Counted from the stretch's first letter, positions 3,729 through 24,657 are shown. The stretch: 64,000 nucleotides of DNA from Candidatus Bathyarchaeia archaeon (GCA_049513715.1 JBEKVV010000005.1:1-64000); one strand, 5' to 3'. Numbers and translations are program-made. Notes: generated by a model not told the origin, from the letters alone.

Positions 3729-4805
3729 GTGGCAGAATTGGCCGTAGGCAAAGAGGCCCTTCTGTACCAACACCTCCCCGGCGGAAGAGTACGATGCACC
3801 GCATGCGCCCGCTACTGCAACATCCCCGAAGGAAAAATTGGGCTGTGCGGCGTCCGCGGCAACGTTGACGGCAAACTCCAACTATTCGTGTACGGCAAAA
3901 TAATCGCCGGCCACGTTGACCCCATCGAAAAGAAACCCGTAACCCACTACATGCCCGGAAGCAAAATCTTCTCCATCGCAACAACCGGATGCTCATGGCT
4001 TTGCGCGTACTGTCAGAACTACGACATCAGTCAGCGGCGGAAGATTGAGGGTATGGAGGTTACGCCGGAGAAGGTTGTGGAGATGACGAAGCAGTATCAT
4101 TGTCAGGGTTTGGCGTACACTTACAATGAACCTTCAATATTCATTGAATTTGCACATGACATCGGCGTTCAGGCCCGGAAGGAGGGGCTCGTCAACATTT
4201 TCGTTTCGAACGGTTACGACACGCCGGAGACTGTTGGTTTGATGCGGGATTTCTTGGATTGCATTACTGTGGATTTTAAGGGTAATGGAGAAACCAGTTT
4301 TGTGCGGAAGTACATTGGCATTGCCAACGCTGAACCTATCTTCGATACTCTACTAGGAATCCGCGACAGGACCAAGGTTCACATCGAGATCACAGATCTA
4401 GTTGTGCCAGAGGTTGGGGATGACTTGGGGGCCGCCAAGAAGCTGTCAAGCTGGGTGTACGACAACCTGGGACCGGACACGCCCATTCATTTTCTGAGGT
4501 TCCACCCCGACTACAAGATGATGCAATTTCCCGCAACCCCCGTTGAGACTCTTGAGAAACATCACGCTATTGCGAAAGAGGTGGGTTTGAACTACGTCTA
4601 CCTAGGCAATGTTCCCGGACACCGTCTTGAACACACCTACTGCCCTGAATGCGGAGAAATAGTTGTGGAGAGATATGGATTCGACATCGCGGGTTGGAAC
4701 TTGGACAGACAGAACCGTTGCACGCACTGCGGAAACGAAATCCCAATCGTAGGCCACTTAAGCAAGGCAATCAACGAAGAACGCTTCATCCCCATAATAA
4801 CGTAA
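3729..4805 (+). CDS. amrS: AmmeMemoRadiSam system radical SAM enzyme (PFL-activase-like)
   Basis: CxxCxRxC N-terminus, DPIEKKP, GCSWLCAYCQN radical SAM motif, YTYNEP, HFLRFHP. Confidence 0.9.
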   Translation: MAELAVGKEALLYQHLPGGRVRCTACARYCNIPEGKIGLCGVRGNVDGKLQLFVYGKIIAGHVDPIEKKPVTHYMPGSKIFSIATTGCSWLCAYCQNYDISQRRKIEGMEVTPEKVVEMTKQYHCQGLAYTYNEPSIFIEFAHDIGVQARKEGLVNIFVSNGYDTPETVGLMRDFLDCITVDFKGNGETSFVRKYIGIANAEPIFDTLLGIRDRTKVHIEITDLVVPEVGDDLGAAKKLSSWVYDNLGPDTPIHFLRFHPDYKMMQFPATPVETLEKHHAIAKEVGLNYVYLGNVPGHRLEHTYCPECGEIVVERYGFDIAGWNLDRQNRCTHCGNEIPIVGHLSKAINEERFIPIIT

Positions 4806-5095
4806 GAAGCCACTCGTCGGGAGAATTGTCGAGTCCGGAGGGACCACTGTAAATCCTCACTGGGTCTTAGCCCATTTGCTGGTTTCGGATATTCCCTTGC
4901 CAGCCTAAGCCTCGTTTCCTATCGGGCCGGTGGGACAAGTAGCCACGAACTCGGAACGTCAACACTTAGCCGTAACGACTCCGATTCGACTACCAAACTA
5001 GGCTATGTGTCTGTCGGTGCGTGGTCGTGGGACCACTGGGAATTCACCCCACTATTTGTTGGGGTTAACGCCTCTCTCCGACCGAGCTTCTAAGA

Positions 5096-6076
5096 ATGCG
5101 AGGTTCAATTTCCGATGCTCGCACCACTAGACCACACACAAAACCACTAAACCCATTACGTGTACAGAGAAGATTGGTAATCAAAGGATTGGTCAAGACG
5201 TCGACCACTACGCACAGCCCTAAGATTGCACCTGAGTATCTTCTAAAGCGAACAGCACGTCAATTGATTTCCTCCGCGATCCTATGCTGGGTTTGGATAT
5301 CATTGACTCTGGCTGTCGTGACAGAGGTGCAACTTGCGGCATTGTGGCGGCCAGTACTTCTAATAGCGTCTGCAGTCAGCTGCTTCGCTCTGATGAGGAA
5401 TCGAATCCTTGATCGGATTTACAGAAGAATTAGCTTTGCAACGCACTATCAACTCAAAGTCACCCTCGCAATCCCATTCAGTGTCTTCCTGGGGATGGTA
5501 ATTGGCTTAATGCTGTTTGGCCGGTGGGACTCGCAACGTGAAATATTGGGCCCCATAGTCGCTGTCGGATTGGTAATTTGTTCGATCCTATGGTCCATCG
5601 GGCCAATGGTTTCCGACAAAAGCGAAGCGAGTCTGCTGCTCACTCAATGCATTTACGAGATCGGGAAAGAGAACAAGATCCCAGATTGCTTTCGCTGGCT
5701 TGACCGCGGTTTGTATAAGATAATCAGAATTCTGAGACAGTATGGCATTAGAGTTCATGGTCCCACACTAAGATTGGGAGCAAGGTTGTATTGCCTTGAA
5801 CGAAAGACTAACCTGAACTCCTTATTGGTCCTGTCCAAAGCAATCATGAAGATGGAAGAATCTGAGCCATTTAGGGAACTCAGGGCCGCGGTCGAGGCGC
5901 TTACAGACACTGCAGAGAAGGCCATCGCTAGAGGCGTCTCACCGCAGCCTCGCATCGTCGACTACTTGGACTTCAGATATCTGTCCCTAAAGAATGTATA
6001 TCAGATGTTAGGCATAATTCTCGCAATACTCGCGATATTGATTTCCATAACAACTGGGCATCTCTCGTTGCGCTAG
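5096..6076 (+). CDS. hypothetical multi-pass membrane protein (true start probably TTG ~5189, downstream of J1)
   Basis: long ORF with about 5 hydrophobic segments. Confidence 0.6.
   Translation: MRGSISDARTTRPHTKPLNPLRVQRRLVIKGLVKTSTTTHSPKIAPEYLLKRTARQLISSAILCWVWISLTLAVVTEVQLAALWRPVLLIASAVSCFALMRNRILDRIYRRISFATHYQLKVTLAIPFSVFLGMVIGLMLFGRWDSQREILGPIVAVGLVICSILWSIGPMVSDKSEASLLLTQCIYEIGKENKIPDCFRWLDRGLYKIIRILRQYGIRVHGPTLRLGARLYCLERKTNLNSLLVLSKAIMKMEESEPFRELRAAVEALTDTAEKAIARGVSPQPRIVDYLDFRYLSLKNVYQMLGIILAILAILISITTGHLSLR
5103..5143 (+). repeat. junction J1 (tRNA-3'-mimic type)
   Basis: GTTCAAtttccgatGCTCGCACCActagacCACACACAAAA. Confidence 0.8.
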
Positions 6077-6274
6077 CACCGCGTCTCTGGCGCAACTGAG
6101 TTATTCGATCCTCTGATCATCGTTATGTTCCATAAACCGATAACCCTCACAAGTGGAAAAAGCCCTACTGAAAACTGTGACCGAAGAGAATGGGGATAGG
6201 ACCGGCGTTGTTCTAAAGTTTAGAATCGGGGTTATGCTATGCGGTTTACGTTATCTTAGAAGTCGCCGGTAGGC

Positions 6275-6303
6275 TTTTTGTGTGTGCGCACCAGCATACC
6301 CAC
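6275..6303 (+). repeat. junction J2
   Basis: TTTTTGTGTGTG CGCACCAGCATAC CCAC; 6279-6303 is the exact reverse complement of 12885-12909. Confidence 0.85.
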
Positions 6304-6475
6304 CCCTCCAGAAAAAATTCCGTTATTGCCAACCACCACAAACAGATCACCCAACCATCCACACCACGAAAATCCCCAGGCCCAATGCGATTATTTACGT
6401 ATGCGAGGGACCTAAGTAATGGCAGTCAGAGCACAGAGAAATTAAGTCAAACGGAGAGGAAAGGCGTTTGGTGAT

Positions 6476-7222
6476 TTGAGTGGAATTGATTGGCTACTCA
6501 ACAAAGTCAAGAAAGTCAGAAGTCGGCTCTCACTTGGAAAAATGCTATGGCTGCTTTTCGTTATACTGCTGATGGTAGGCACCTACTACGTGTTCAATCG
6601 TGATAGATATGTGGGGGCGTCTCAGGATTTTGGACCTGTGGAAGTCTCAGGGTCAGGTGGGCGGTCACCTTTCAATGTGACTCTGAGACTTCAATGCGGC
6701 TCCGAAGATAATTCGTACTTGTCAGACGTAGCAGACATCAATTGTGAGATTCTGACGAGATCTAAAGCGGAACCAATTCCAGAAATGGATTTCCGTGTTC
6801 TTATAATGAACGCGAGAAATCAGACAGTGGTAGAATGCAATAGCGCTGTGGAGAACATCAGTAATGTTTCCGAGAGCTCAAGCTTTTGTCTTAATTCTAT
6901 GGGCAATAGGTACTTCGAACTTCCTACGGGGGACTTCAGAGTAGTAATCAAACAATTTTCTATTATGGGAGGAGGAGTTGTCGTAACAAAAGCAAACCCC
7001 GTGATGTTCCGCGGAGAATTGCATGTAATCTCGGCCTTTGAGAAGCAAACTAGATTATCGCAGGACGGTACATCACTTGCCACATTCCTCGCCTTTCTAT
7101 TCATCATCCCAACCACGGTGTTCGCATTACGTTCTTTCTTGATGGAATCCACGGGCAAGAACAGAACAGAAGACTCGCCCGAGGACTCGAATCCCAACAA
7201 GGCGCGCTATTGTTTTGAATAG
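6476..7222 (+). CDS. hypothetical membrane-anchored protein
   Basis: 248-aa ORF with N- and C-terminal TM segments. Confidence 0.6.
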   Translation: MSGIDWLLNKVKKVRSRLSLGKMLWLLFVILLMVGTYYVFNRDRYVGASQDFGPVEVSGSGGRSPFNVTLRLQCGSEDNSYLSDVADINCEILTRSKAEPIPEMDFRVLIMNARNQTVVECNSAVENISNVSESSSFCLNSMGNRYFELPTGDFRVVIKQFSIMGGGVVVTKANPVMFRGELHVISAFEKQTRLSQDGTSLATFLAFLFIIPTTVFALRSFLMESTGKNRTEDSPEDSNPNKARYCFE

Positions 7223-7267
7223 TTCCAGAGCCCTCTCTGTTCTCGTCTTGATCGTTGCTGGCAGTTA

Positions 7268-7663
7268 ATGCCATTTGCCAGTTTTGCCCTGGCTAGTGAC
7301 CACGCAAGCCCATTTGATTTGACATTCACGAGAACTGCAACTTACACCAACACGACTACCTTGACAAGTTCAAAGGTGGTGATGATTACATTCATGCGGA
7401 CCAGTACACTTCACAATCTCTCGCGGGGTCTGGGCGTAACAATTGTCGGGTCTGCAGGCATCGGATCGACCATGTCGATTACCACGTACACCAATCAACC
7501 AAGCGATGGTTCGCCAGCTCTATTCGGTGCTTTGCTGCTTTGCGTGCTTGGGCTGGTGTTAGTGATGTTGCGGAAGCTCAGAAGGTCGCAAAAAGATCAT
7601 AGGTTGAAGATCTTGGTATCGATGGTGCGACCGGTTGAATCTGATCCGTCGGTTCGTGCGTAA
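7268..7663 (+). CDS. Thr-rich small membrane protein or fragment
   Basis: Thr/Ser-rich with a C-terminal TM and basic tail. Confidence 0.35.
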   Translation: MPFASFALASDHASPFDLTFTRTATYTNTTTLTSSKVVMITFMRTSTLHNLSRGLGVTIVGSAGIGSTMSITTYTNQPSDGSPALFGALLLCVLGLVLVMLRKLRRSQKDHRLKILVSMVRPVESDPSVRA

Positions 7664-7666
7664 TTC

Positions 7667-7695
7667 TGTGTGCGCGCACCACTAAACCCAACACA
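7667..7695 (+). repeat. junction J3
   Basis: TGTGTGCG CGCACCACTAAAC CCAACACA. Confidence 0.75.
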
Positions 7696-7751
7696 TCACA
7701 ACACAACCCAACAAAACTGGACAGTACAGCAAGTCAGCAAAAGCTACGTCA

Positions 7752-7782
7752 TGTGTGCGCGCGCACCATTGGACCACACACA
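7752..7782 (+). repeat. junction J4
   Basis: TGTGTGCGCG CGCACCATTGGAC CACACACA. Confidence 0.8.
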
Positions 7783-7855
7783 GGCGAAAACCATAGCCAC
7801 GTCAAACTAGATACAGTATGCAAGATGTGGTCGCCATTACCCTCTATGAGACGTT

Positions 7856-8977
7856 TTAGGAGTGCCTAACAATCCACGACCACAATGCTGCTCGCACCGC
7901 CTCGGTCATAGCTTCCGTAAGGCCTGATGTTTCGATTGTTTCAAAGGCTCCTGAACTGAAAACCTCCTGATAAGTAAATACGGGGGGCATTCCAACATGC
8001 TGATCTCCGAGTTGGAACTGATCTCTAAGTTCCTTCAAGACTGCGCTAGTTGGGATTCGGAAGCGCGATTCGAAATCATGTGCAAAACTGTTACGGAACT
8101 TCTCTAGGAAGTTGATGAAGTCATCATAGCGCGAGTTGCCCGTTCCTCCAAGCTTGAACTCTGGTGGAGCGTTTCTCCATACTTGAACCGTAGATGCTAG
8201 TTTGTCACGCAAGGATTGATCAAGTGCTTTATCGAAGAAATTCCTCAGCGCACGACGACTTCCATGCCTAACTAGATAGAACTCGTAAATGTCCAGGAGA
8301 CTCTTGGGACTCATTTCCTTCTGTTCTCGTATGGCCTGTTCCACTTCGGACACAGTGTCTTTCGCTTTCAGCCAGTCGCCGTACTGGAAATATGGACTTG
8401 ACCGACCTAGAGATTCGGCGCAGGTACATAGAATGAACAGGGCCCATGACGCTGCACCTCCTGGAAAGAGATTGGCAGTTTCTACTCCCTGCGTTTGAAG
8501 CAAATCGACAGCCTGGAGTCGATGTATGATGGATTCGATGAACCCTATCGGATGGTTCGCACGTTCCTCAGTTGATGGAACCTAATCATCTGGTAATTCC
8601 ATCAACGATTCTAGGCGTTTATCAAACTCGCTCCGACTGCAAACCATCTCTACCTGTTTGAAAATCGCATTTGACTCTGCTTCATAGCGACGTATTAGGA
8701 GAACAACTTTTGAATTCCAGGAAACATGGTAAATTCGAAGCTTCACAGCGCCTGCCAAGGGCGTGTTTGAAACACTCGTGAACGAATGATCATAACCAGA
8801 CTTTACTTCCAAGCCCTCGGCGTCTTCAGGTGGTTCGCTGCTAACTCCGAAATATAGAATTGCCCCTAATCTGAGAAGTTTAGGGTTTATTCCGAGGAGA
8901 CCCGATGCTTTGAGCTCCAGCCCATTATATCGAAATCTGAAAGGATCTAGCATTGAGTCCAACTCAGCCGTTCTCAA
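7856..8977 (-). pseudogene. putative HEPN-domain protein interrupted by an in-frame TAG at 8582-8584 (ORFs 8582..8977 and 7856..8503)
   Basis: both ORFs share a frame with 26 open codons between them; FRNSFAH RxxxxH motif in the C-terminal half. Confidence 0.55.
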
Positions 8978-9215
8978 GGATTAGACCATTCGCAACATTG
9001 TTTGGGTTGGCTTGCCTGCTTAAGTTTTGGTGTTTGCTCCTTCAATCGTACGAACCCCCAGAACCGTCCTCCATAAATGACAATCACAGAACAGCTTCGT
9101 TTCGCGGGAGTTCCGTCGCGTACTTCGCCACATATGTTTGGGTTGACGAATATCCGAGGACGGATTGTTGGAGGATCCCTCCCTTGACTTCAGATACAGA
9201 AAAAGGCACAGGGTG

Positions 9216-9254
9216 TTTTCGTGTGTGTGTGCTCACCAGCTAGTACCACACACA
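9216..9254 (+). repeat. junction J5
   Basis: TTTTCGTGTGTGTGTG CTCACCAGCTAGTAC CACACACA. Confidence 0.75.
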
Positions 9255-9328
9255 GAGCCACTCCGCACGAAAAGCACCGCAAGTCTGAAAGGAATGTTCC
9301 GAACTAAGACAGGACAGTTGAATCGAAA

Positions 9329-10885
9329 GTGCCGTCCTTTGCGCTGGTGGTTGATAGCCAAAATGTCTCTGGACGAATTGAAGGGCTAACAGCCGCCTTA
9401 GGACCTAGAGCTGGGGGCACTTCTTCGAGCGAACTAGAAAAGAAAGACTTTTCGAGAGGGAGCGCCGCGTTCGATCCTCGGACGCTAACGAATCCAAAGA
9501 CAAAACTAGCCATTGATTATGCGCCGGCAGGCAACGCAGAAGAAACTCTCGAATTCATTTCTCAAATCAAGAGCGTTTTTCCAGAGATGGCATTCGAATC
9601 CGAGTTTCTCCAACAATTAAGGTCAAGTGCCCAAAGTTTCAAGTATGTTCGGAGTCGCGGTTTCCTGAGCTTATGGAGAGAAGGCCTATTCGGTCAAGAC
9701 CTCGAATTCTTTCTGACTGACTCGCAACAGGACGACGATGTTGTCATAGCTGAAGATCACTTGGACACAAGCCGAAAACAAATCGTATTCGTCAGGACTT
9801 GGCAACAGATGTCGGCATTTGTCGAAAAAGTGCTTGAACCTTGGTTGGTGAGCGGGAAGGTCAAGCCTATTCAGGACTTTGGCGAGACCGCTGTTCCATT
9901 CTTTACGGGTCCCACCTCTCATGCATTGTCAGAATCGCGCCAGCGATGGCTGAGTCTTCCAGTTCCATCAATGATTTACTCGCGAGCATGGGCCGAACAG
10001 AAACCGGACTATCCCAACAAGGACTGGGCAATAATCAGTTCGAAGCGGACATATGCCAACCTTCACCACGCCTTCGCGGTTCTGCTGGAAAGATCCCAGG
10101 AACGTATTAGATTCGGTTGCATCTTTTGCCTTCCTGAAAATAGAGGCCGAGTTGTGGATGTTCATGTCGACCCGAACGAGACGAATTACAAATTGATTGT
10201 CCAATGTGAGACAACAGTTCCTCTCAAGCTCAAAGTGTCCTGTCTTCAGGATTCAAATGTCACTGAGGTATACAATGCCGATGCCTCTGCTACTCAGGCG
10301 TTTGCGGTTGACTACGCTCCCACAGAGGTCATAGCCGAACTACTGGGACCGGATTTGGTCGACAGATCTGCATATCACAATAGAGCGGGCGCCATCACAA
10401 CTTCCATTCAACCTAAGCCTCAGGTAGTGGTCGCGACTCAGATAGGTCTTCCAGTGCAGCCGCAGGTACTAGCTGGAGCAGAGACCATGATTGCTGCGTA
10501 CGCTCGATTCTTCATAATGGAGAACACATTGAGGGCGCTGGCTAAAGACAGATTCGTGAAGGCATTCGGTGTTCGGTGGGCGAAGGAATTAGCGCCCGTT
10601 CTAATTGCCGGAAAAACTCCCGGAGAACAGGCTCGAGTAAATCAGGTCTTAGTATCAAATCCTGATCAGATCCTTGAGCAGGTCTACTATCGCGATCTCA
10701 ATAGAATAGTTGACAAGTTCTGGTCCTTGTTCGAACCATTATTCCATGATAAGGATAGAACTCTGCTGAAGTTGAAAGAACTGGAGAATCTGAGGAACGA
10801 CATTGCGCACAACCGCGTCCTTGCTAATCACGACATAAAGCGAATTGAAGTATACTACATGGACTTGCTCAGCAATGTACCATGA
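9329..10885 (+). CDS. large protein with C-terminal Swt1-like HEPN domain
   Basis: YARFFIMENTLR...YYRDL..IV...W..F...LENLRNDIAHNR. Confidence 0.75.
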   Translation: MPSFALVVDSQNVSGRIEGLTAALGPRAGGTSSSELEKKDFSRGSAAFDPRTLTNPKTKLAIDYAPAGNAEETLEFISQIKSVFPEMAFESEFLQQLRSSAQSFKYVRSRGFLSLWREGLFGQDLEFFLTDSQQDDDVVIAEDHLDTSRKQIVFVRTWQQMSAFVEKVLEPWLVSGKVKPIQDFGETAVPFFTGPTSHALSESRQRWLSLPVPSMIYSRAWAEQKPDYPNKDWAIISSKRTYANLHHAFAVLLERSQERIRFGCIFCLPENRGRVVDVHVDPNETNYKLIVQCETTVPLKLKVSCLQDSNVTEVYNADASATQAFAVDYAPTEVIAELLGPDLVDRSAYHNRAGAITTSIQPKPQVVVATQIGLPVQPQVLAGAETMIAAYARFFIMENTLRALAKDRFVKAFGVRWAKELAPVLIAGKTPGEQARVNQVLVSNPDQILEQVYYRDLNRIVDKFWSLFEPLFHDKDRTLLKLKELENLRNDIAHNRVLANHDIKRIEVYYMDLLSNVP

Positions 10886-10894
10886 AAAGGTCAA

Positions 10895-11185
10895 GTGATA
10901 GCAATATTCGGTTCGACAGAATGTGACAGAGAACTGGATGATCCTCTGTTCATTTCTAGCAGATCTTCAGCGGTTGATCTTGCAGAACCTTCACCAAAGT
11001 TAGTGGGACAGGATGACCGTGAACTAAGAGCTAGGATTCTCAGGATGACTCAGTCCGAGGCAAGAGACCTTGGCATCGGGAAGAGCACGCTTCATTACCT
11101 ACGCAAAAGAACGCGCAGTAGGACACAGATGAGGCTTTACTCTAATACACACGGTAAACTACAACTTCTCTGCTCCAAGACATGA
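10895..11185 (+). pseudogene. cas1: C-terminal HTH fragment of a casposon-type (solo) Cas1 / casposase
   Basis: DLAEPSPKLVGQDDRELRARILRMTQSEARDLGIGKSTLHYLRK resembles the C-terminal HTH extension of family-2 casposases; catalytic domain absent. Confidence 0.7.
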
Positions 11186-12252
11186 CAAACCGCAAATTCT
11201 GCGTTTTCTGTGGCGCAGAGCCAAAGACACACAGCCGAGAGCACATAATTCCCCGATGGCTGATTGAGCTTACGGGCGACCCGAAGAGAAAGGCGATTTT
11301 TGGTCCATTTTGGAATACTGCGAAAAGAAAGTTCGAAATGCACACATTCGCTTTTGATCAATTCACGCTCCCTTCATGCGCAGCATGCAACATGGAGTTC
11401 TCGAAGCTTGAGAAATCCACAAAGCAGATTATAGAGTCTATTTTGGAAGTGAAGCCGCTTGACTCTAGAGATTTGCTTGTTCTTCTGTCGTGGCTAGACA
11501 AGGTGAGGGTTGGGTTATGGCTTGCATACTACCATGTTCAAAAGAACGTTTGGCAAATTGTTCCACAGTTTTTTGTCAAGTCACGGATGGACATGTCGGA
11601 TCGAATGGTACTCATCTATAGGTCAGATCTACGAGACCCACGATTACGTGTCGAGGGGCATACGGTCCCTGCATTCCAATACCAACCAACTTGCTTTGTG
11701 CTCAGTGTAAACGAATTCATTCTGTTCAACATCTCTACCAGCTTCTTACTCTCCGAACGAATGGGACTCCCCTATGCCCATCGACTGGCCTACACGAATA
11801 CTCCTCAAATCGAGACAACCCTGGCTAGAGGAAGGAATCGCATCGTGTATCCTTTGGTCAGATTCAAATATGATCATCGTTGCGCCGAGATATTCCAGCC
11901 GATATTCACCTCTTTAGTTGGAGATGCATATTACCAAAACGAACATGTGCAGTCGATTAGCCTTGACCATTCGAAAGGAGTTGGAAGGGTCTTCTACTAT
12001 GATAAGCCATTCGTACAGGAGTACCCCAACTCCAAGTCGATCAGTTGGGTGCCTAAATGGACGTGGAGGGATGACGCTCTGTGGAAAGTTATCCGAAAAC
12101 AGTGGCTAGAAATCCAATTACATCTTTTTGAGTACGGCCCATGCGCGACCAAGATAAGTCTTGACCATGTCGACAAACCAAAGAAACAATTAGTCCAATC
12201 ACAAGTGCAGACATCAAAGAAGATAAGCGGAATGTTCCTCGACTCGATTTGA
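11182..12252 (+). CDS. HNH endonuclease-domain protein
   Basis: FCVFCG...SREHIIPRWL...SCAACN. Confidence 0.75.
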   Translation: MTNRKFCVFCGAEPKTHSREHIIPRWLIELTGDPKRKAIFGPFWNTAKRKFEMHTFAFDQFTLPSCAACNMEFSKLEKSTKQIIESILEVKPLDSRDLLVLLSWLDKVRVGLWLAYYHVQKNVWQIVPQFFVKSRMDMSDRMVLIYRSDLRDPRLRVEGHTVPAFQYQPTCFVLSVNEFILFNISTSFLLSERMGLPYAHRLAYTNTPQIETTLARGRNRIVYPLVRFKYDHRCAEIFQPIFTSLVGDAYYQNEHVQSISLDHSKGVGRVFYYDKPFVQEYPNSKSISWVPKWTWRDDALWKVIRKQWLEIQLHLFEYGPCATKISLDHVDKPKKQLVQSQVQTSKKISGMFLDSI

Positions 12253-12271
12253 GAAATATTCCAAAGAAGGA

Positions 12272-12300
12272 TTTTGTGTTTGTGCGCACTAATAGACCCC
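12272..12300 (+). repeat. junction J6
   Basis: TTTTGTGTTTGTG CGCACTAATAGAC CCC. Confidence 0.7.
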
Positions 12301-12322
12301 AGTATGAAAGAGAGCTATCAAG

Positions 12323-12847
12323 ATGCAAGCTGATTTCGACCGTTTTATGACAGGCCTGGAGATCGCGGGTTCAAGGATTGACGCGCACTATTTCCAAATC
12401 AGAGTTTCCGGAGCAGAGGACCCAATATATCGTGAACGAGTCTATTGCTATGAATTATATCATCAGCTGCGCGTGGCGTTAGGCGACATTTTCGAATACA
12501 AACTCGATGGAGAACTTGACAAGAAGAATCACTCAATTCTAGTGAGATTAGGTGCAAGGAAGCCTGATCTTGTCGTGCACGTCCCCGGTAATATGGATGG
12601 AAACCTCGTCGTGATTGAAGTCAAGAAGGTTGAGACAAGAAAGCAGCTTCTTGAAAACGATCTTTGCAAATTGATGAAGTTCTTGGATGACGGTAATTAC
12701 TTTCGGGGGATTATGCTAGTATATGGTGATGGCTATCAGAAACTGCCGGATTGGATCAGAGACAAAGTCCTTCAGTTACAGGAGTCACGCCTCGCTCTGG
12801 TGTGGCATGCAGGACCTGGAGAAAGCCCCAGGATTATCAATGGTTGA
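12323..12847 (+). CDS. PD-(D/E)XK nuclease-like protein
   Basis: ERVYCYELYHQLR, GELDK, KPDLVVH...VIEVK. Confidence 0.7.
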   Translation: MQADFDRFMTGLEIAGSRIDAHYFQIRVSGAEDPIYRERVYCYELYHQLRVALGDIFEYKLDGELDKKNHSILVRLGARKPDLVVHVPGNMDGNLVVIEVKKVETRKQLLENDLCKLMKFLDDGNYFRGIMLVYGDGYQKLPDWIRDKVLQLQESRLALVWHAGPGESPRIING

Positions 12848-12878
12848 ATTTGAACAGTCGTCGTTTGTCGTCAGAAAA

Positions 12879-12915
12879 GTGTGTGTGGGTATGCTGGTGC
12901 GCACACACACCAAAA
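12879..12915 (-). repeat. junction J7 (inverted; most symmetric copy)
   Basis: reverse complement reads TTTTG GTGTGTGTG CGCACCAGCATACC CACACACAC. Confidence 0.85.
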
Positions 12916-12920
12916 CGTCG

Positions 12921-12966
12921 GTTCAAACTACGTTGCTCGCACCATTAGAACCACACGCACCGAAAA
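12921..12966 (+). repeat. junction J8 (tRNA-3'-mimic type)
   Basis: GTTCAAactacgttGCTCGCACCAttagaacCACACGCACCGAAAA. Confidence 0.8.
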
Positions 12967-13194
12967 CCAATCAAACCCAGACGCCGATGAAGGCGCGGGA
13001 GAATTCCCACGTAATAATTAAGACCGCTATCAACAAGACTCAGGCCATGGCATACTTCACGATTTCAAATCTCGAAAGACGCAACGGATGCAAAATGAAA
13101 ACGTATCAACAATATGCCAGAATGTGGTACAGAAATTGGATTAGGTTATTATGTCCGTGTAGATGGTTGCAGCCCTTGATTTCGGAGGTTTTGT

Positions 13195-14481
13195 ATGATG
13201 TATAACAGTGATTTGCTCGCCAGGCGGGAGCGGGCGCTGGGGAAAGGAGCAACGCTGTTTTACCGCCAACCGCTGCACATCGTACGAGGGGAAGGCGTAT
13301 ATTTGTTCGATGACACCGGCAAACGGTACATCGATATGTACAACAATGTACCATGTGTCGGCCATGCAAACCCCCACGTTGTTGCGGCAATGGTCAAACA
13401 GGCCAGTACGCTGAACGTGCACAGCCGTTATCTTCATGAGTCCATCGTGAGATATGCGGAGCGACTATCAGCTCACCACGATAAATCTTTGACAACCACG
13501 GTCTTCACCTGTACAGGCACAGAGGCCAATGAAGTGGCGATTATGATGGCCCGCTGTGCGACCGGTGGCCGGGGCATTATCTGCACCGATGCGGCCTATC
13601 ATGGCAACAGCGAGGAAGTCAGAAAACTGAAACACACACCCGTCGGCGGCAAGGGTGAGATTCGGAGCATACCGTTTCCGCAGACCTACCGCCCAATCAA
13701 AGAAGGTGTGAGTGAGACAGAATTGACCGACCTTTACCTTGCTGAAGTCCGGCGTGTCATCAGAGAGTTTGCCGAGGATGGCATCCGGTTTGCAGGCATG
13801 CTGGTCTGCTCTATACTGGCGAACGAAGGGTTGCCGAATATCCCGGCGGGTTTCATGCCCCGGGCAGCTGAGATAGTGAGACAGGCGGGCGGTCTGTTCA
13901 TTGCCGACGAAGTGCAAGCCGGTCTCTGCCGGTCCGGTCGCTGGTGGGGCTATGAAGTGACCGGTTTTGTCCCGGATATCGTTTCTATGGGCAAACCGCT
14001 GGGTAACGGACTTCCGCTTGCGGGTGTTATAGCTCGTGAGGAGCTGGTCAATAAGTTCCGGGCTTCCACAGAGTACTTCAATACCTTTGCTTCCAGCCCG
14101 CTTCAGGGTGAGGTAGGAAACGCCGTGCTCGATATCCTGGAGAAGGAAAAACTTTGCGAAAACTCGGCAGATGTGGGCGCCTATCTGCGCGGCCAGCTGT
14201 CGTCCTTCACAGCCCGTTATGATGCGGTTGCCGATGTCCGGGGTCACGGACTGTTCGTAGGCCTGGAGTGGGTCAGCGACCGTGCTGCCAAGACACCGGA
14301 CAGGCGTGGAGCGGAGGAAGCCGCCAACCGTCTCAAGGACAAAGGTTTTCTCGTGCTCAATGCCGGCGTCCTGGGTAACTTTCTGAAGTTACGTCCGCCG
14401 CTGGTCTTTTCCCGGCAACACGCAGATACGTTCGTGGGTGCATTAGGCGAAGTGCTGCAGGATATGTATGGGCACAGTTAA
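13195..14481 (+). CDS. class-III PLP-dependent aminotransferase / phospho-lyase (AGXT2L-like), bacterial type
   Basis: YIDMYNNVPCVGH, GTEANE, YHG, FIADEVQAG, PDIVSMGKPLGNG, FNTF, RGHGLFVGLE, LKLRPPL. Confidence 0.9.
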   Translation: MMYNSDLLARRERALGKGATLFYRQPLHIVRGEGVYLFDDTGKRYIDMYNNVPCVGHANPHVVAAMVKQASTLNVHSRYLHESIVRYAERLSAHHDKSLTTTVFTCTGTEANEVAIMMARCATGGRGIICTDAAYHGNSEEVRKLKHTPVGGKGEIRSIPFPQTYRPIKEGVSETELTDLYLAEVRRVIREFAEDGIRFAGMLVCSILANEGLPNIPAGFMPRAAEIVRQAGGLFIADEVQAGLCRSGRWWGYEVTGFVPDIVSMGKPLGNGLPLAGVIAREELVNKFRASTEYFNTFASSPLQGEVGNAVLDILEKEKLCENSADVGAYLRGQLSSFTARYDAVADVRGHGLFVGLEWVSDRAAKTPDRRGAEEAANRLKDKGFLVLNAGVLGNFLKLRPPLVFSRQHADTFVGALGEVLQDMYGHS

Positions 14482-22131: not shown

Positions 22132-22442
22132 GTCTACCCATGAATGCCATTTAGAGTGTCGCGGGTTCATGCTCTGGGGTGGGATTTTCACCCCCGTGGG
22201 TGTGTCCGAAACACCCCACGGTTGGATTTGAACCGAGGGGGGCGAATTGAATTCACCCCGCGAACCTAGGGGTGTCTTTTCATCTTTCGAAAAATCTTCT
22301 GTCAAAGCTCACACCGAAGCGCTATTGGACGATTCAGAAGTTAAACTTCTGGGTGACCTCATTTTCCGATTTTCATTATGATCACGAAATTTCCAAAGTT
22401 CAAATTTGTTCTACCGCAACAATGATGCACACAAAAAGAGGA

Positions 22443-22482
22443 GTTCAAGATCAGCCGCTCGCACCAGCAGACCCACACACAC
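22443..22482 (+). repeat. junction J9 (tRNA-3'-mimic type)
   Basis: GTTCAAgatcagccGCTCGCACCAgcagacCCACACACAC. Confidence 0.8.
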
Positions 22483-22554: not shown

Positions 22555-24657
22555 CTATTTTGTTAGGCCACACTGTTTCCTGAGCTTCTCCACCAGTTCC
22601 AGGTATCGGGGGTCGGCCCTCGCCTTGGCGAAGAGGGGCGAGTACCTCATTGTTGTGGCAACTCCTGCATGGGCTTCGACGGCCCTGTTCAAGTACCCGA
22701 AGTAGGAGTCGAGGTCTCCGAGGGCATGGTAGACGTACGCGATGAAGTTGAAGCCTACCGGACCCATCTTGGCGTCCTCGATCTTCCTGACTGCGAGCAG
22801 TGCTCTTTCCCTGTCGCCCTCCATGGCCGCGATGACCCCTCCCATCCAAGTGACCCGAGGATTGGCGGGATCGATCTTCTCCAACTTCGCAAGGAGCTCC
22901 TTAGCCTTCTCAAGGTCCCCCTTGGCTAGGTAGTACTCCGTCATACCCCTGTACGCGAACGCCGGGGCCAGCTGCTCAGTCTTCTTCCAGAACTCCAGCG
23001 CCTCCTGCTCCCTCCCCGTTTGGAAGTATGCCAAGCCGACCCGGTAGATGAAGTCGGGTCTGATGGGGTCCAAGCGGTATGCTGCCTCGATCTGTCTAAC
23101 CATCTCCGCCGGGTCTCCTTTGACTGCCGCCAGCTCGGACAGGTTCCAGTAGGGCTCTGGGAGGTTAGGGTTGAGTTCCAGCGCCCTTCTGGCCTCCGCT
23201 TCCGAACCGACGACGTCGTCCTCGTTGAAGAGCACGTTCGAGAGCGCCGAGTGGGCCTCCGGAAGGTTCGGGTCGAGGTTGAGGGCGCGCCCCAGTAGTC
23301 GCCTCACAGTCGTGACGGAGATGCCAACTGGCTCACTTCCTTTGTCAGAAAGTAATTGGTGACATTCTGCCTCGCCCACGTACGCTCTCGCGAACTTGGA
23401 ATCCAGCTCGATGGCCTTCTCGAAGAGAGCTATGCCCTGCCTAAGTGAAGCCTCGGTCTGCTCCCTCAACAGTTCCCTGCCCCGCAGGAAGCAAGTGTAC
23501 GCTTCCGTGTTCTCAGTATCCTTCTTCACGATCACGCGCTTCTCTGAATCCACGAGCCGAATCTTGAGTTCCCCGGCCACCTTCTCAGCGATCTCCGACT
23601 GAATCGCGAAGACGTCCTCCAGCTGCCGGTCATAATTCTGGCCCCAGAGGTGACCCTCCGTTGATGTGTCGATGAGCTGCGCCGTTATCCTCACCTTGTT
23701 ACCCGCCTTTCTGACGCTGCCCTCAATCAAGCTGCCAGCGTTCAGCTCCTTTCCCACGTCCGAGGCGCCCTTCTGTGACCCCTTGTACTTCATGACGGAC
23801 GTTCTAGCGATAACTGTCAGCTGTCTCAGGCCTGAGAGGGATGTGATGAGCTCCTCGGTCATGCCGTCCGCGAAGTACCCATCTTCAGGGTTGGAACTCA
23901 GGTTTGCGAAAGGCAGAACTGCAATCCGCCTCTTATCAAGGCCCGCTTCGATCGCTTCTTGTCTCTTGTCTCTCGTCGCCTGTCTCTCGGGGGCTAATCC
24001 TTCTAAGAGAACCTCTTTTTCGGTGGTTTCGATTCCATGCATCCATTTGATTACGAGGCTCTTTCTTAGTTGGCCTTCGACTTGTTTCTCGATGAGTTCT
24101 ATGTTCCCGTTGAACAGGTCAACGATCGCTTGAACCTCTTCGCTCGAATGCATGAGCGGGTTCAGGAGGACCAGCGTTGTGATGTTCTTGGCTCGGAACT
24201 TGTCGAGAAGCTCTGAGAGCCACTTCCTCGTTTGAAGCGCCTTATGCCGCAACAGAACATCGGAAAGGAACTGAACCGCGAGCCGACTGGCGTGAAGAGC
24301 GTTGATGGTTTCCGTGATCACGATGTTTAGTTCGGTTAGGTTTTCGATGCCCTTGCCGGGTAGAGTGTTCTGGGCGGGGGGAACGGGTTTGTCGCTGCAA
24401 ACAAGACACTTCAGGCCGTCAGGTTTGTTGCCGAGAATTGGCTCCGCAGAAGACAAACTTCGAGTGATAAGCAGACTCACCGGATCAGCTTCGAGGAATC
24501 TGCGTAGAAGTATTGGGACTTCGTCGCTCGCGGGTGCACTCAGAACGATGGCTGAACCGGCTAGAAATCCGCCTTGAAGCGCCTCATCAAGTCTAGCGTA
24601 CCCAGTAGAAACCCTGCCCCTCAAAGCGGAACTAGGTGCCGCTGGCCTCTCAGTCAA
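22555..24657 (-). CDS. degenerate KaiC/RAD55-like domain fused to TolB-like N domain and TPR repeats
   Basis: VSTGYARLDEALQGGF with a broken Walker A; RIAVLPFANLS..YFADGMTEELI; TPRs. Confidence 0.8.
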   Translation of the reverse strand: MTERPAAPSSALRGRVSTGYARLDEALQGGFLAGSAIVLSAPASDEVPILLRRFLEADPVSLLITRSLSSAEPILGNKPDGLKCLVCSDKPVPPAQNTLPGKGIENLTELNIVITETINALHASRLAVQFLSDVLLRHKALQTRKWLSELLDKFRAKNITTLVLLNPLMHSSEEVQAIVDLFNGNIELIEKQVEGQLRKSLVIKWMHGIETTEKEVLLEGLAPERQATRDKRQEAIEAGLDKRRIAVLPFANLSSNPEDGYFADGMTEELITSLSGLRQLTVIARTSVMKYKGSQKGASDVGKELNAGSLIEGSVRKAGNKVRITAQLIDTSTEGHLWGQNYDRQLEDVFAIQSEIAEKVAGELKIRLVDSEKRVIVKKDTENTEAYTCFLRGRELLREQTEASLRQGIALFEKAIELDSKFARAYVGEAECHQLLSDKGSEPVGISVTTVRRLLGRALNLDPNLPEAHSALSNVLFNEDDVVGSEAEARRALELNPNLPEPYWNLSELAAVKGDPAEMVRQIEAAYRLDPIRPDFIYRVGLAYFQTGREQEALEFWKKTEQLAPAFAYRGMTEYYLAKGDLEKAKELLAKLEKIDPANPRVTWMGGVIAAMEGDRERALLAVRKIEDAKMGPVGFNFIAYVYHALGDLDSYFGYLNRAVEAHAGVATTMRYSPLFAKARADPRYLELVEKLRKQCGLTK

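Follow-up and report, generated by a model that had tools for sequence, protein, structure and literature searches.

A casposase C-terminal remnant among tRNA-like junction repeats in a Bathyarchaeia genome

Positions 10895–11185 of the window (the whole 64,000-nt stretch of DNA that was analysed, from contig C5 of a 99.4% complete, 2.79-Mb assembly of a peat archaeon, here termed G000) hold a 96-codon ORF that, by homology, is the leftover last fifth of a casposase gene. Very probably, this ORF is a dead 3′ casposase remnant lying in the remains of a polymerase-less, casposon-like Bathyarchaeia element. The reading is built on the homology and truncation of the ORF, the anatomy of the junction repeats around it, and the TSD/TIR geometry of intact relatives.

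10895–11185, + strand: casposase-tail ORF, 96 aa, GTG start, containing EPSPKLVGQDDRELRARILRMTQSEARDLGIGKSTLHYLRK
10949–11170, + strand: Cas1-homologous stretch in the ORF, corresponding to approximately residues 331–405 of Cas1/casposases of ~400 aa; linker and predicted three-helix HTH (ORF residues 42–74)

The initial annotation had called this ORF the C-terminal HTH region of a casposase. Protein search, tblastn and alignment all bear this out, with Cas1 C-termini as the best matches. In the alignment, ORF residues 19–89 correspond to the casposase C-terminal region, and residues 1–18 resemble nothing. The last ~72 residues of Cas1 proteins of ~400 aa match the ORF at 45–67% identity (E down to 7e-18), and an invariant GIGKSTLH block and the motif EPSPKL..DDRELR..RIL are common to the ORF and full-length Cas1. 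A database of 5.8 billion proteins contained 60 longer homologues (169–2000 aa; full-length members are ~391–415 aa) matching at E ≤ 0.01, and 51 of these carry PF01867. By tblastn, all 18 full-length Cas1 queries matched the window at 10946–11182 (E 3e-18 to 9e-13), and did so with residues ~330–405 only. Pfam found no Cas1 domain in the ORF itself, and searches of it with NCBIfam and PADLOC returned no family match.

The sole PDB match of the ORF was the Methanosarcina mazei casposase (6opm_A, residues 341–403, E 8.9e-4). A full-length relative, P0010, aligns to the same structure over residues 6–396 with E 1.1e-68; for the best CRISPR Cas1 structure the value was 6.8e-26, and CRISPR Cas1 alignments end near P0010 residue ~333–336. 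Family 2 casposases are described as having 60–70 extra C-terminal residues with a predicted HTH, which the CRISPR Cas1 proteins treated in the same account lack (PMC6977970), in agreement with the initial annotation. By descent, then, the ORF belongs with casposases: its homology to them is closer than to CRISPR Cas1 and includes the C-terminal HTH extension. An AlphaFold model of the ORF (28 sequences) predicts three helices at residues 42–74 (pLDDT 85–92) and disorder over the first 40 residues. Compared with the PDB by Foldseek, this model had no match at or below E 0.001, and the 32 weak hits (E 2.9–9.7) were mostly HTH DNA-binding domains.

A working casposase the ORF is not. The active-site residues E162, H232 and E247 of the M. 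mazei enzyme (PMC6977970) correspond to E167, H236 and E253 in full-length relatives, where they are nearly invariant. All three lie upstream of the first homologous residue of the remnant, and the ORF has no catalytic E/H/E. With the N-terminal and catalytic domains gone, DNA integration by the ORF product is impossible.

The ORF had been described as lying in a repeat-bounded module between a Swt1-HEPN gene and an HNH gene. Junctions do bound it, at 9221–9255 and 12879–12911, but the idea of a single clean insertion fails, as the two flanking cores are inverted.

9221–9255, + strand: left junction of the module; (GT)n end of the preceding module (9221–9231), core CTCACCAGCTAGTA (9232–9245), (CA)n end (9246–9255)
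9329–10885, + strand: HEPN cargo gene, 518 aa, with a Swt1-like HEPN at residues 394–517
11182–12252, + strand: weakly HNH-like cargo gene, 356 aa, its ATG overlapping the stop of the Cas1 remnant (ATGA)
12323–12847, + strand: unassigned ORF, 174 aa, no family match; last gene before the element end
12845–12888, − strand: conserved element end; reading inward, (CA)n tip, TTTTC, GACGAC-rich stretch, start of a tRNA-like GTTCAAATT motif
12889–12911, − strand: right junction of the module; inverted core CGCACCAGCATAC (12889–12901), further (CA)n end (12902–12911)

Of the two neighbour labels, HEPN stands (PF18731, 30.2 bits against a cut-off of 27.5, E 5.9e-7; PADLOC PDC-M34B, 2.8e-20), whereas HNH is weak: PF14279 (HNH_5) is sub-threshold at 13.3 bits against a cut-off of 27.5 (E 0.08), NCBIfam gave nothing useful for this protein, and an ESM Atlas cluster auto-named 'HNH endonuclease family protein' (feature score 0.97) is a lead only. 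The HEPN gene occupies the place where the missing 5′ four-fifths of cas1 would be. The break in cas1 falls between 10886 and 10948, a stretch with no junction motif. HEPN gene and Cas1 remnant are in one frame, split by a single TGA (10883–10885) and three codons; this is probably chance, a 1-in-3 coincidence. Downstream of cas1 the layout is that of intact relatives, with cas1 tail, overlapping cargo and element end following one another.

On the minus strand, the right junction reads (GT)n, CGCACCAGCATAC, (CA)n across 12879–12911. The two flanking cores, CTCACCAGCTAGTA on the plus and CGCACCAGCATAC on the minus strand, differ and face each other rather than forming direct repeats, and module 9246–12888 itself has no TSD. 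Because the cores are unlike and mutually inverted, the module is a composite, not one clean insertion; the limits of the original element are beyond reconstruction, and deletion or recombination is what we infer. Among the 61 genomes compared (G000 and 60 relatives) the module is unique, with no second copy in the 60 others. Only the cas1 tail (71–77% identity, 8 places) and the terminal ~42 nt (12845–12888; 82–97% identity, 25 places in 13 genomes, comprising 12 relatives and G000) recur. In each of four sequencing runs, one contig spans 4500–12907 (4727–12907 in X7), without differences. Over the region 4500–13500 in these runs, depth across the array equals that of the flanks and contigs break at the 12880–12907 repeat. 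No empty site or excision was seen in the contigs of the four runs; four 'joints' with 20–25-letter sides proved to be repeat artefacts. The array is fixed at flank depth. Among the sequencing runs listed as containing this DNA, 24 are DNA runs and none is an RNA run.

Junctions take two forms, GTTCAAATT-N5-GCYCGCACCA-N6-7-(CA)n and (GT)n-CGCACCA-N6-7-(CA)n, and by criteria set in this analysis the genome has 113 of them. Within the window, cores lie at 5120, 6287, 7675, 7762 and 9232 on the plus strand, at 12901 on the minus strand, and at 12938, 22415 and 22460 on the plus strand; a weaker T-type core match lies at 7629 on the minus strand.

5103–5141, + strand: tRNA-3′-like target motif heading the array, then core CGCACCACTAGAC and (CA)n end
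6279–6305, + strand: junction; (GT)n end, core CGCACCAGCATAC, C-rich end
7667–7783, + strand: two junctions 87 nt apart, cores at 7675 and 7762, each with (GT)n, CGCACCA core and (CA)n-like end
12921–12951, + strand: tRNA-3′-like target motif, GTTCAAACT..GCTCGCACCA with a 14-nt core, then a degenerate (CA)n end
22415–22481, + strand: two further tRNA-like target motifs, cores at 22415 and 22460, (CA)n ends, beside a KaiC-TPR gene

CGCACCA cores start directly after the T-arm-like GTTCAAATT motif, the arrangement seen with site-specific insertion at a tRNA 3′ end as in M. mazei. ARAGORN found no tRNA gene in the window, and Rfam had no hit at gathering score anywhere in the window and none even with E allowed to reach 10 in 4700–5300, so the motif at 5103 is not established as a tRNA gene. 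Genome-wide, the tRNA-like motif has 54 copies, 8 with a perfect T stem that look like genuine tRNA ends; the degenerate form occurs ~46 times. A (CA)n run is found within 45 nt upstream in 26 of the 54 copies and just after the core in 36. We considered and rejected a maintained hairpin in the motif: over the 54 copies, means of 2.81 of 5 pairs (8-nt loop) and 2.87 (7-nt loop) compare with 2.86 for shuffled partners. Since the non-tRNA copies pair no better than shuffled ones, the motif looks like a sequence signal, not a structure. Insertions at real tRNA ends are seen at L028 and G000:C3:86169.

Several further observations concern these motifs. After the core, a C-rich run and then AGAAAA occur at window 6294–6310, G000:C3:68434, C4:240357 and L020:14057, and may represent another end type or a preferred flank. 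Identical pairs of 14-mers starting CGCACCA flank three short stretches of G000 without cas1 (C4:201832–204646, 2.8 kb; C5:167006–168047, 1.0 kb; C3:67533–68434, 0.9 kb), which are candidate non-autonomous elements. Homologous TPR proteins adjoin tRNA-like junction motifs in three genomes (window 22555–24657 on the minus strand, L019:15213–16676 and L021:6514–7962); the window protein also has a KaiC-like ATPase part, and the L019 gene is inside a delimited element. ARAGORN reported 9 tRNA genes in G000 by default and 30 when introns (up to 399 nt) were allowed; the tRNA genes of this genome are heavily interrupted, with many still undetected.

The whole of G000 gave no PF01867 match and hence no intact Cas1. 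By tblastn it has five cas1 pieces, each 5′-truncated and lacking at least the first 239 codons.

C1:893767–894258, C1:619113–619280, C1:46608–46784, C5:10949–11170 (the ORF studied) and C3:524394–524676: cas1 pieces

Four of the five lie within 2 kb of a junction, compared with 8.1% of the genome (binomial 2e-4, treating pieces as independent), and in three of the five an element end and then an inverted core follow downstream. The window contains no CRISPR-like array, and no other Cas-related gene was found in it. The genome has four PF00136 PolB genes, none on the contig of the window; PF03175 (protein-primed PolB) had no match in it, but the control matched in no genome either. Pfam and the array search thus agree with the initial annotation that PolB, other cas genes and CRISPR arrays are missing from the window. 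An accessory 626-aa family B polymerase of G000 (C3:77949–79826; L043:3950–5827) has close copies (62–73% identity) listed in 7 of 22 same-genus genomes, and broken pieces of it occur in a few other genomes. This patchy polymerase was considered as one acting in trans and was rejected: in four other genomes no junction motif or cas1 lies within ~9 kb of it.

P0010 was searched against the 61 genomes and matched 77 places in 28 of them. Fourteen places are full length, 34 are 5′-truncated pieces still reaching at least residue 394, and the remainder comprise internal fragments, fragments interrupted by a contig end, and distant Cas1 genes. Broken cas1 is strongly skewed towards such 5′-less, 3′-kept pieces, whose starts spread from residue 103 to 356.

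We consider the ORF a relic with high confidence. Another reading, which we judge improbable, is that an HTH-only ORF has been kept as a small DNA-binding protein, either as an inhibitor or regulator of casposon integration in trans or as a regulator of the cargo operon, with predicted binding to the tRNA-like 'leader' or to element ends. Truncated transposases act as inhibitors or regulators in other systems. The 96-codon frame is uninterrupted, with neither an internal stop nor a frameshift, and it ends in a stop codon that overlaps the ATG of 11182–12252, so the ORF could be translated with the cargo operon; yet a recently truncated gene would be expected to retain 72 open codons, and the GTG start has no clear ribosome-binding site. 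The three-helix core is modelled with confidence, and an HTH is a self-contained domain. In M. mazei, deletion of the casposase to construct 1–341 abolishes integration, making the HTH essential, and this domain has been proposed to recognize sequence lying upstream of where insertion occurs; in the binding experiments described there, however, the authors detected no DNA binding by the isolated HTH (PMC6977970). Pieces keeping only residues from at least 329 to the end recur at 10 of the 77 places, and in L013 one HTH-only piece lies directly downstream of an intact cas1. Against conservation of such a protein, the module is conserved in 0 of 60 relatives, and database homologues show no common start. 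All 35 short ones (52–168 aa, one being the record of the ORF itself) align to the C-terminal part of Cas1 and 34 of them reach at least residue 390, but their starts are scattered over residues 246–352, and the first 18 residues of the ORF are shared by none of the 34 others.

Whether the ORF descends from an element with ends like the junction repeats was judged from intact relatives. We examined 14 intact cas1 loci, as 20 kb around ten intact genes plus four further loci. In six, identical 14-mers enclose cas1 and delimit elements of 7.2–11.0 kb; the other eight had no exact enclosing pair within the DNA compared.

L017: 14-mer CGCACCACTATACC, 8.6 kb; a third copy of this 14-mer comes after a second element, a decayed one whose cas1 is truncated
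L019: 14-mer CGCACCAGCATACC, 11.0 kb; GCC-rich ends
L021: 14-mer CGCACCAGCTGACC, 7.2 kb; GCC-rich ends
L022: 14-mer CGCACCAAGGTACC, 9.4 kb
L026: 14-mer CTCACCAGCTGTGG, 9.0 kb
L028: 14-mer CCCACCACGATTTC, 9.0 kb; directly after a proper tRNA T-arm and acceptor, with a perfect TIR of at least 26 nt

Four of the six 14-nt duplications start CGCACCA, one CTCACCA and one CCCACCA. Inverted ends are (CA)n in four elements and GCC-rich in two, and the repeats adjoin tRNA 3′ ends or the tRNA-like GTTCAAATT..GCYCGCACCA motif. All six relatives thus have the TIR and ~14–15-bp TSD that characterize a family 2 casposon. The orientation of cas1 relative to the core is the same in three elements and opposite in three, indicating that insertion orientation is free, as expected for inverted ends. 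The two GCC-ended elements (L019:6079–17058 and L021:8091–15249) represent a second subfamily, in which Cas1 is 57–58% identical to P0010 and the 14-nt duplication starts CGCACCA. The initial annotation had supposed a decayed casposon with the junction repeats as its ends, tying the array to Cas1-type integration, and had predicted the ends that intact relatives should show. The ends of the six elements support this, with (CA)n termini in the majority, 14-nt duplications throughout and the same junction forms in the window.

From 12 intact-cas1 loci, 118 ORFs were scanned against Pfam: 10 in L022, 88 of 143 in L013–L021, and 20 in L026 and L028. The minimum ORF size was 90–100 aa; in L013–L021, ORFs far from cas1 or nested in longer ones were dropped, and all ORFs of at least 100 aa inside three delimited elements were kept, except one nested antisense in cas1. 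None of the 118, which include those of all six delimited elements, matched PolB (PF00136, PF03104, PF03175), in a scan that very divergent or fragmented polymerases would escape. Because none of the six delimited elements encodes PolB, its absence is a trait of the family rather than a product of decay, contrary to the earlier suggestion that missing PolB marks a decayed element. No cas2, cas4 or other Cas family besides Cas1 was reported among these ORFs. Genes after cas1 are variable and defence-like (AIPR, TIR domains, N6/N4 methylase with ParB, DUF4365, NT5C, HEPN). Upstream of cas1, a winged-helix regulator occurs in several loci, together with three or four small, conserved genes of no assigned family, one of them a weakly TniB-like ATPase.

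These elements also bear on whether the junction repeats are instead att- or attC-like sites of a tyrosine recombinase, integron-like or tRNA-targeting, with the Cas1 fragment as an unrelated passenger. We think this very unlikely. In its favour, integrases classically target tRNA 3′ ends, gene modules lie between the repeats as they would in an integron, and a PF00589 gene (C5:218633–219133, 98 bits) lies outside the window, ~3 kb from the junction cluster C5:212984–215732. But PF00589 exceeds its cut-off only twice in the genome, both times outside the window, as against 113 junctions; it is found in 0 of the 118 ORFs of intact-cas1 loci; and no recombinase is tied to the repeat array. The elements have inverted termini, and their flanking 14-mers are identical within an element but differ between elements in the last 6–7 nt, the signature of staggered-cut duplication rather than of a fixed att core. 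The enrichment of cas1 pieces beside junctions likewise speaks against a passenger. Finally, although many homologues are publicly annotated 'CRISPR-associated protein Cas1', it is exceedingly unlikely that the ORF derives from the Cas1 of a decayed CRISPR-Cas locus, since its conserved part is the C-terminal extension that CRISPR Cas1 lacks (PMC6977970), the CRISPR Cas1 structures matching P0010 align no further than its residue ~336, the full-length relative is far closer to the casposase, no cas2 and array sit beside cas1, the window has no cas gene of any other kind, G000 has no Cas1 domain, and no second Cas family was reported among the 118 ORFs around intact relatives.

The casposase reading places the Bathyarchaeia elements nearest to family 2, which includes the M. 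mazei casposon. There, a 14-bp TSD includes an invariant CGCA, supplied by the final 4 bp of tRNA-Leu; insertion needs ~30 bp of the tRNA sequence upstream; and tandem casposons are separated by a shared TSD, with solo TIRs beside CGCA (PMC6977970, PMC4779613). Like family 2 casposons (M. mazei MetMaz, 6OPM; Aciduliprofundum boonei AciBoo-C1), the Bathyarchaeia elements combine a Cas1 bearing a C-terminal HTH with terminal inverted repeats and a 14-nt target duplication, CGCA being first in four of six (CTCA and CCCA in the others). Shared features also include insertion exactly at the 3′ terminus of a tRNA gene, with a need for upstream tRNA sequence, along with tandem stacks at a single site that have a TSD in common, and solo ends next to CGCA. 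Unlike family 2, they have no PolB (0 of 6), are smaller (7–11 kb), and have termini that are simple (CA)n or GCC-rich runs. Their usual target is a degenerate tRNA-like motif, often inside an element end, rather than a working tRNA gene; the cargo after cas1 is defence-like and variable; and the ORF studied is a catalytically dead tail only. The arginines R191 and R192, which contact CGCA in M. mazei (PMC6977970), align in the 6opm alignment to H-Q in Bathyarchaeia Cas1 proteins, which counts against our reading. Family 2 is thus the closest family by similarity to 6opm, as had been claimed, while membership fails on PolB.

Casposons are defined as self-synthesizing elements with PolB, which the Bathyarchaeia family does not encode. 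Casposons of families 1–4 carry PolB, and a 'family 5' from hot-spring metagenomes is PolB-poor; it consists of Cas1-solo genes with conserved catalytic residues, mostly with no PolB nearby, and has been suggested to comprise non-self-replicating transposons (PMC9755687). As described there, family 5 has no C-terminal HTH and is placed next to subtype I-A Cas1 (PMC9755687). The Bathyarchaeia Cas1 differs, on a comparison with family 5 by description only, in having the HTH and being closest to a family 2 structure. A likeness of casposon insertion to CRISPR adaptation, with its leader, repeat and Cas1-Cas2, is a model discussed in PMC6977970. In contrast to CRISPR adaptation, the Bathyarchaeia inserts are kilobase-sized and have inverted termini, their repeat measures 14 nt, array orientation is mixed, and the elements have no Cas2, crRNA processing or effector. 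In the literature searched we found no description of a PolB-less, casposon-like Bathyarchaeia family, nor, in the parts of it that were available, of non-autonomous casposons.

Taken together, the co-location of cas1 pieces with junctions and the likeness to M. mazei suggest that Cas1 made these junctions. In the mechanism we propose, an intact element of 7–11 kb with short inverted ends would insert beside a tRNA 3′ end or a tRNA-like copy, duplicating 14 nt that start CGCACCA. Many element ends would bring their own tRNA-like landing site, so that new insertions would pile into older ones and yield the nested or tandem array at 5103–12951. For the module around the ORF, we infer both the order of events and the loss of function. 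Its right part (cas1 tail, cargo and end) would come from an element inserted against the direction of the core. The left part, with four-fifths of cas1, would have been lost by deletion or recombination, joining the remainder to a HEPN-bearing piece of the plus-oriented stack. The transposition genes and most of cas1 would thereby have gone from the module, their place taken by the HEPN gene, while one conserved element end and the cargo genes that follow cas1 would have survived.

More tentatively, and with somewhat less than even confidence, we suggest that Bathyarchaeia harbour undescribed casposons with an HTH-bearing Cas1 and without PolB, in which the ends carry a tRNA-like leader and a CGCA target, insertions recreate targets, arrays collect defence genes, and HTH-only tails possibly act as decoys that limit insertion. 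If true, this picture would offer a present-day counterpart to the casposon-to-CRISPR-array transition that has been proposed.

The ORF itself is, in all likelihood, an ordinary pseudogene. Its value is as a label that ties genome-wide tRNA-tail repeats to Cas1-type integration, and it points to the enzyme family responsible for the gene modules that are stacked between repeats in a peat archaeon. That family joins the target logic of M. mazei to three traits absent from the searched literature: no PolB, target copies borne by the element, and arrays of defence-like cargo. Should a purified relative reproduce the insertion in vitro, self-synthesis would cease to be obligatory for casposons, and nature would offer a Cas1 system that builds leader-proximal repeat arrays, with a direct bearing on the origin of the CRISPR array.
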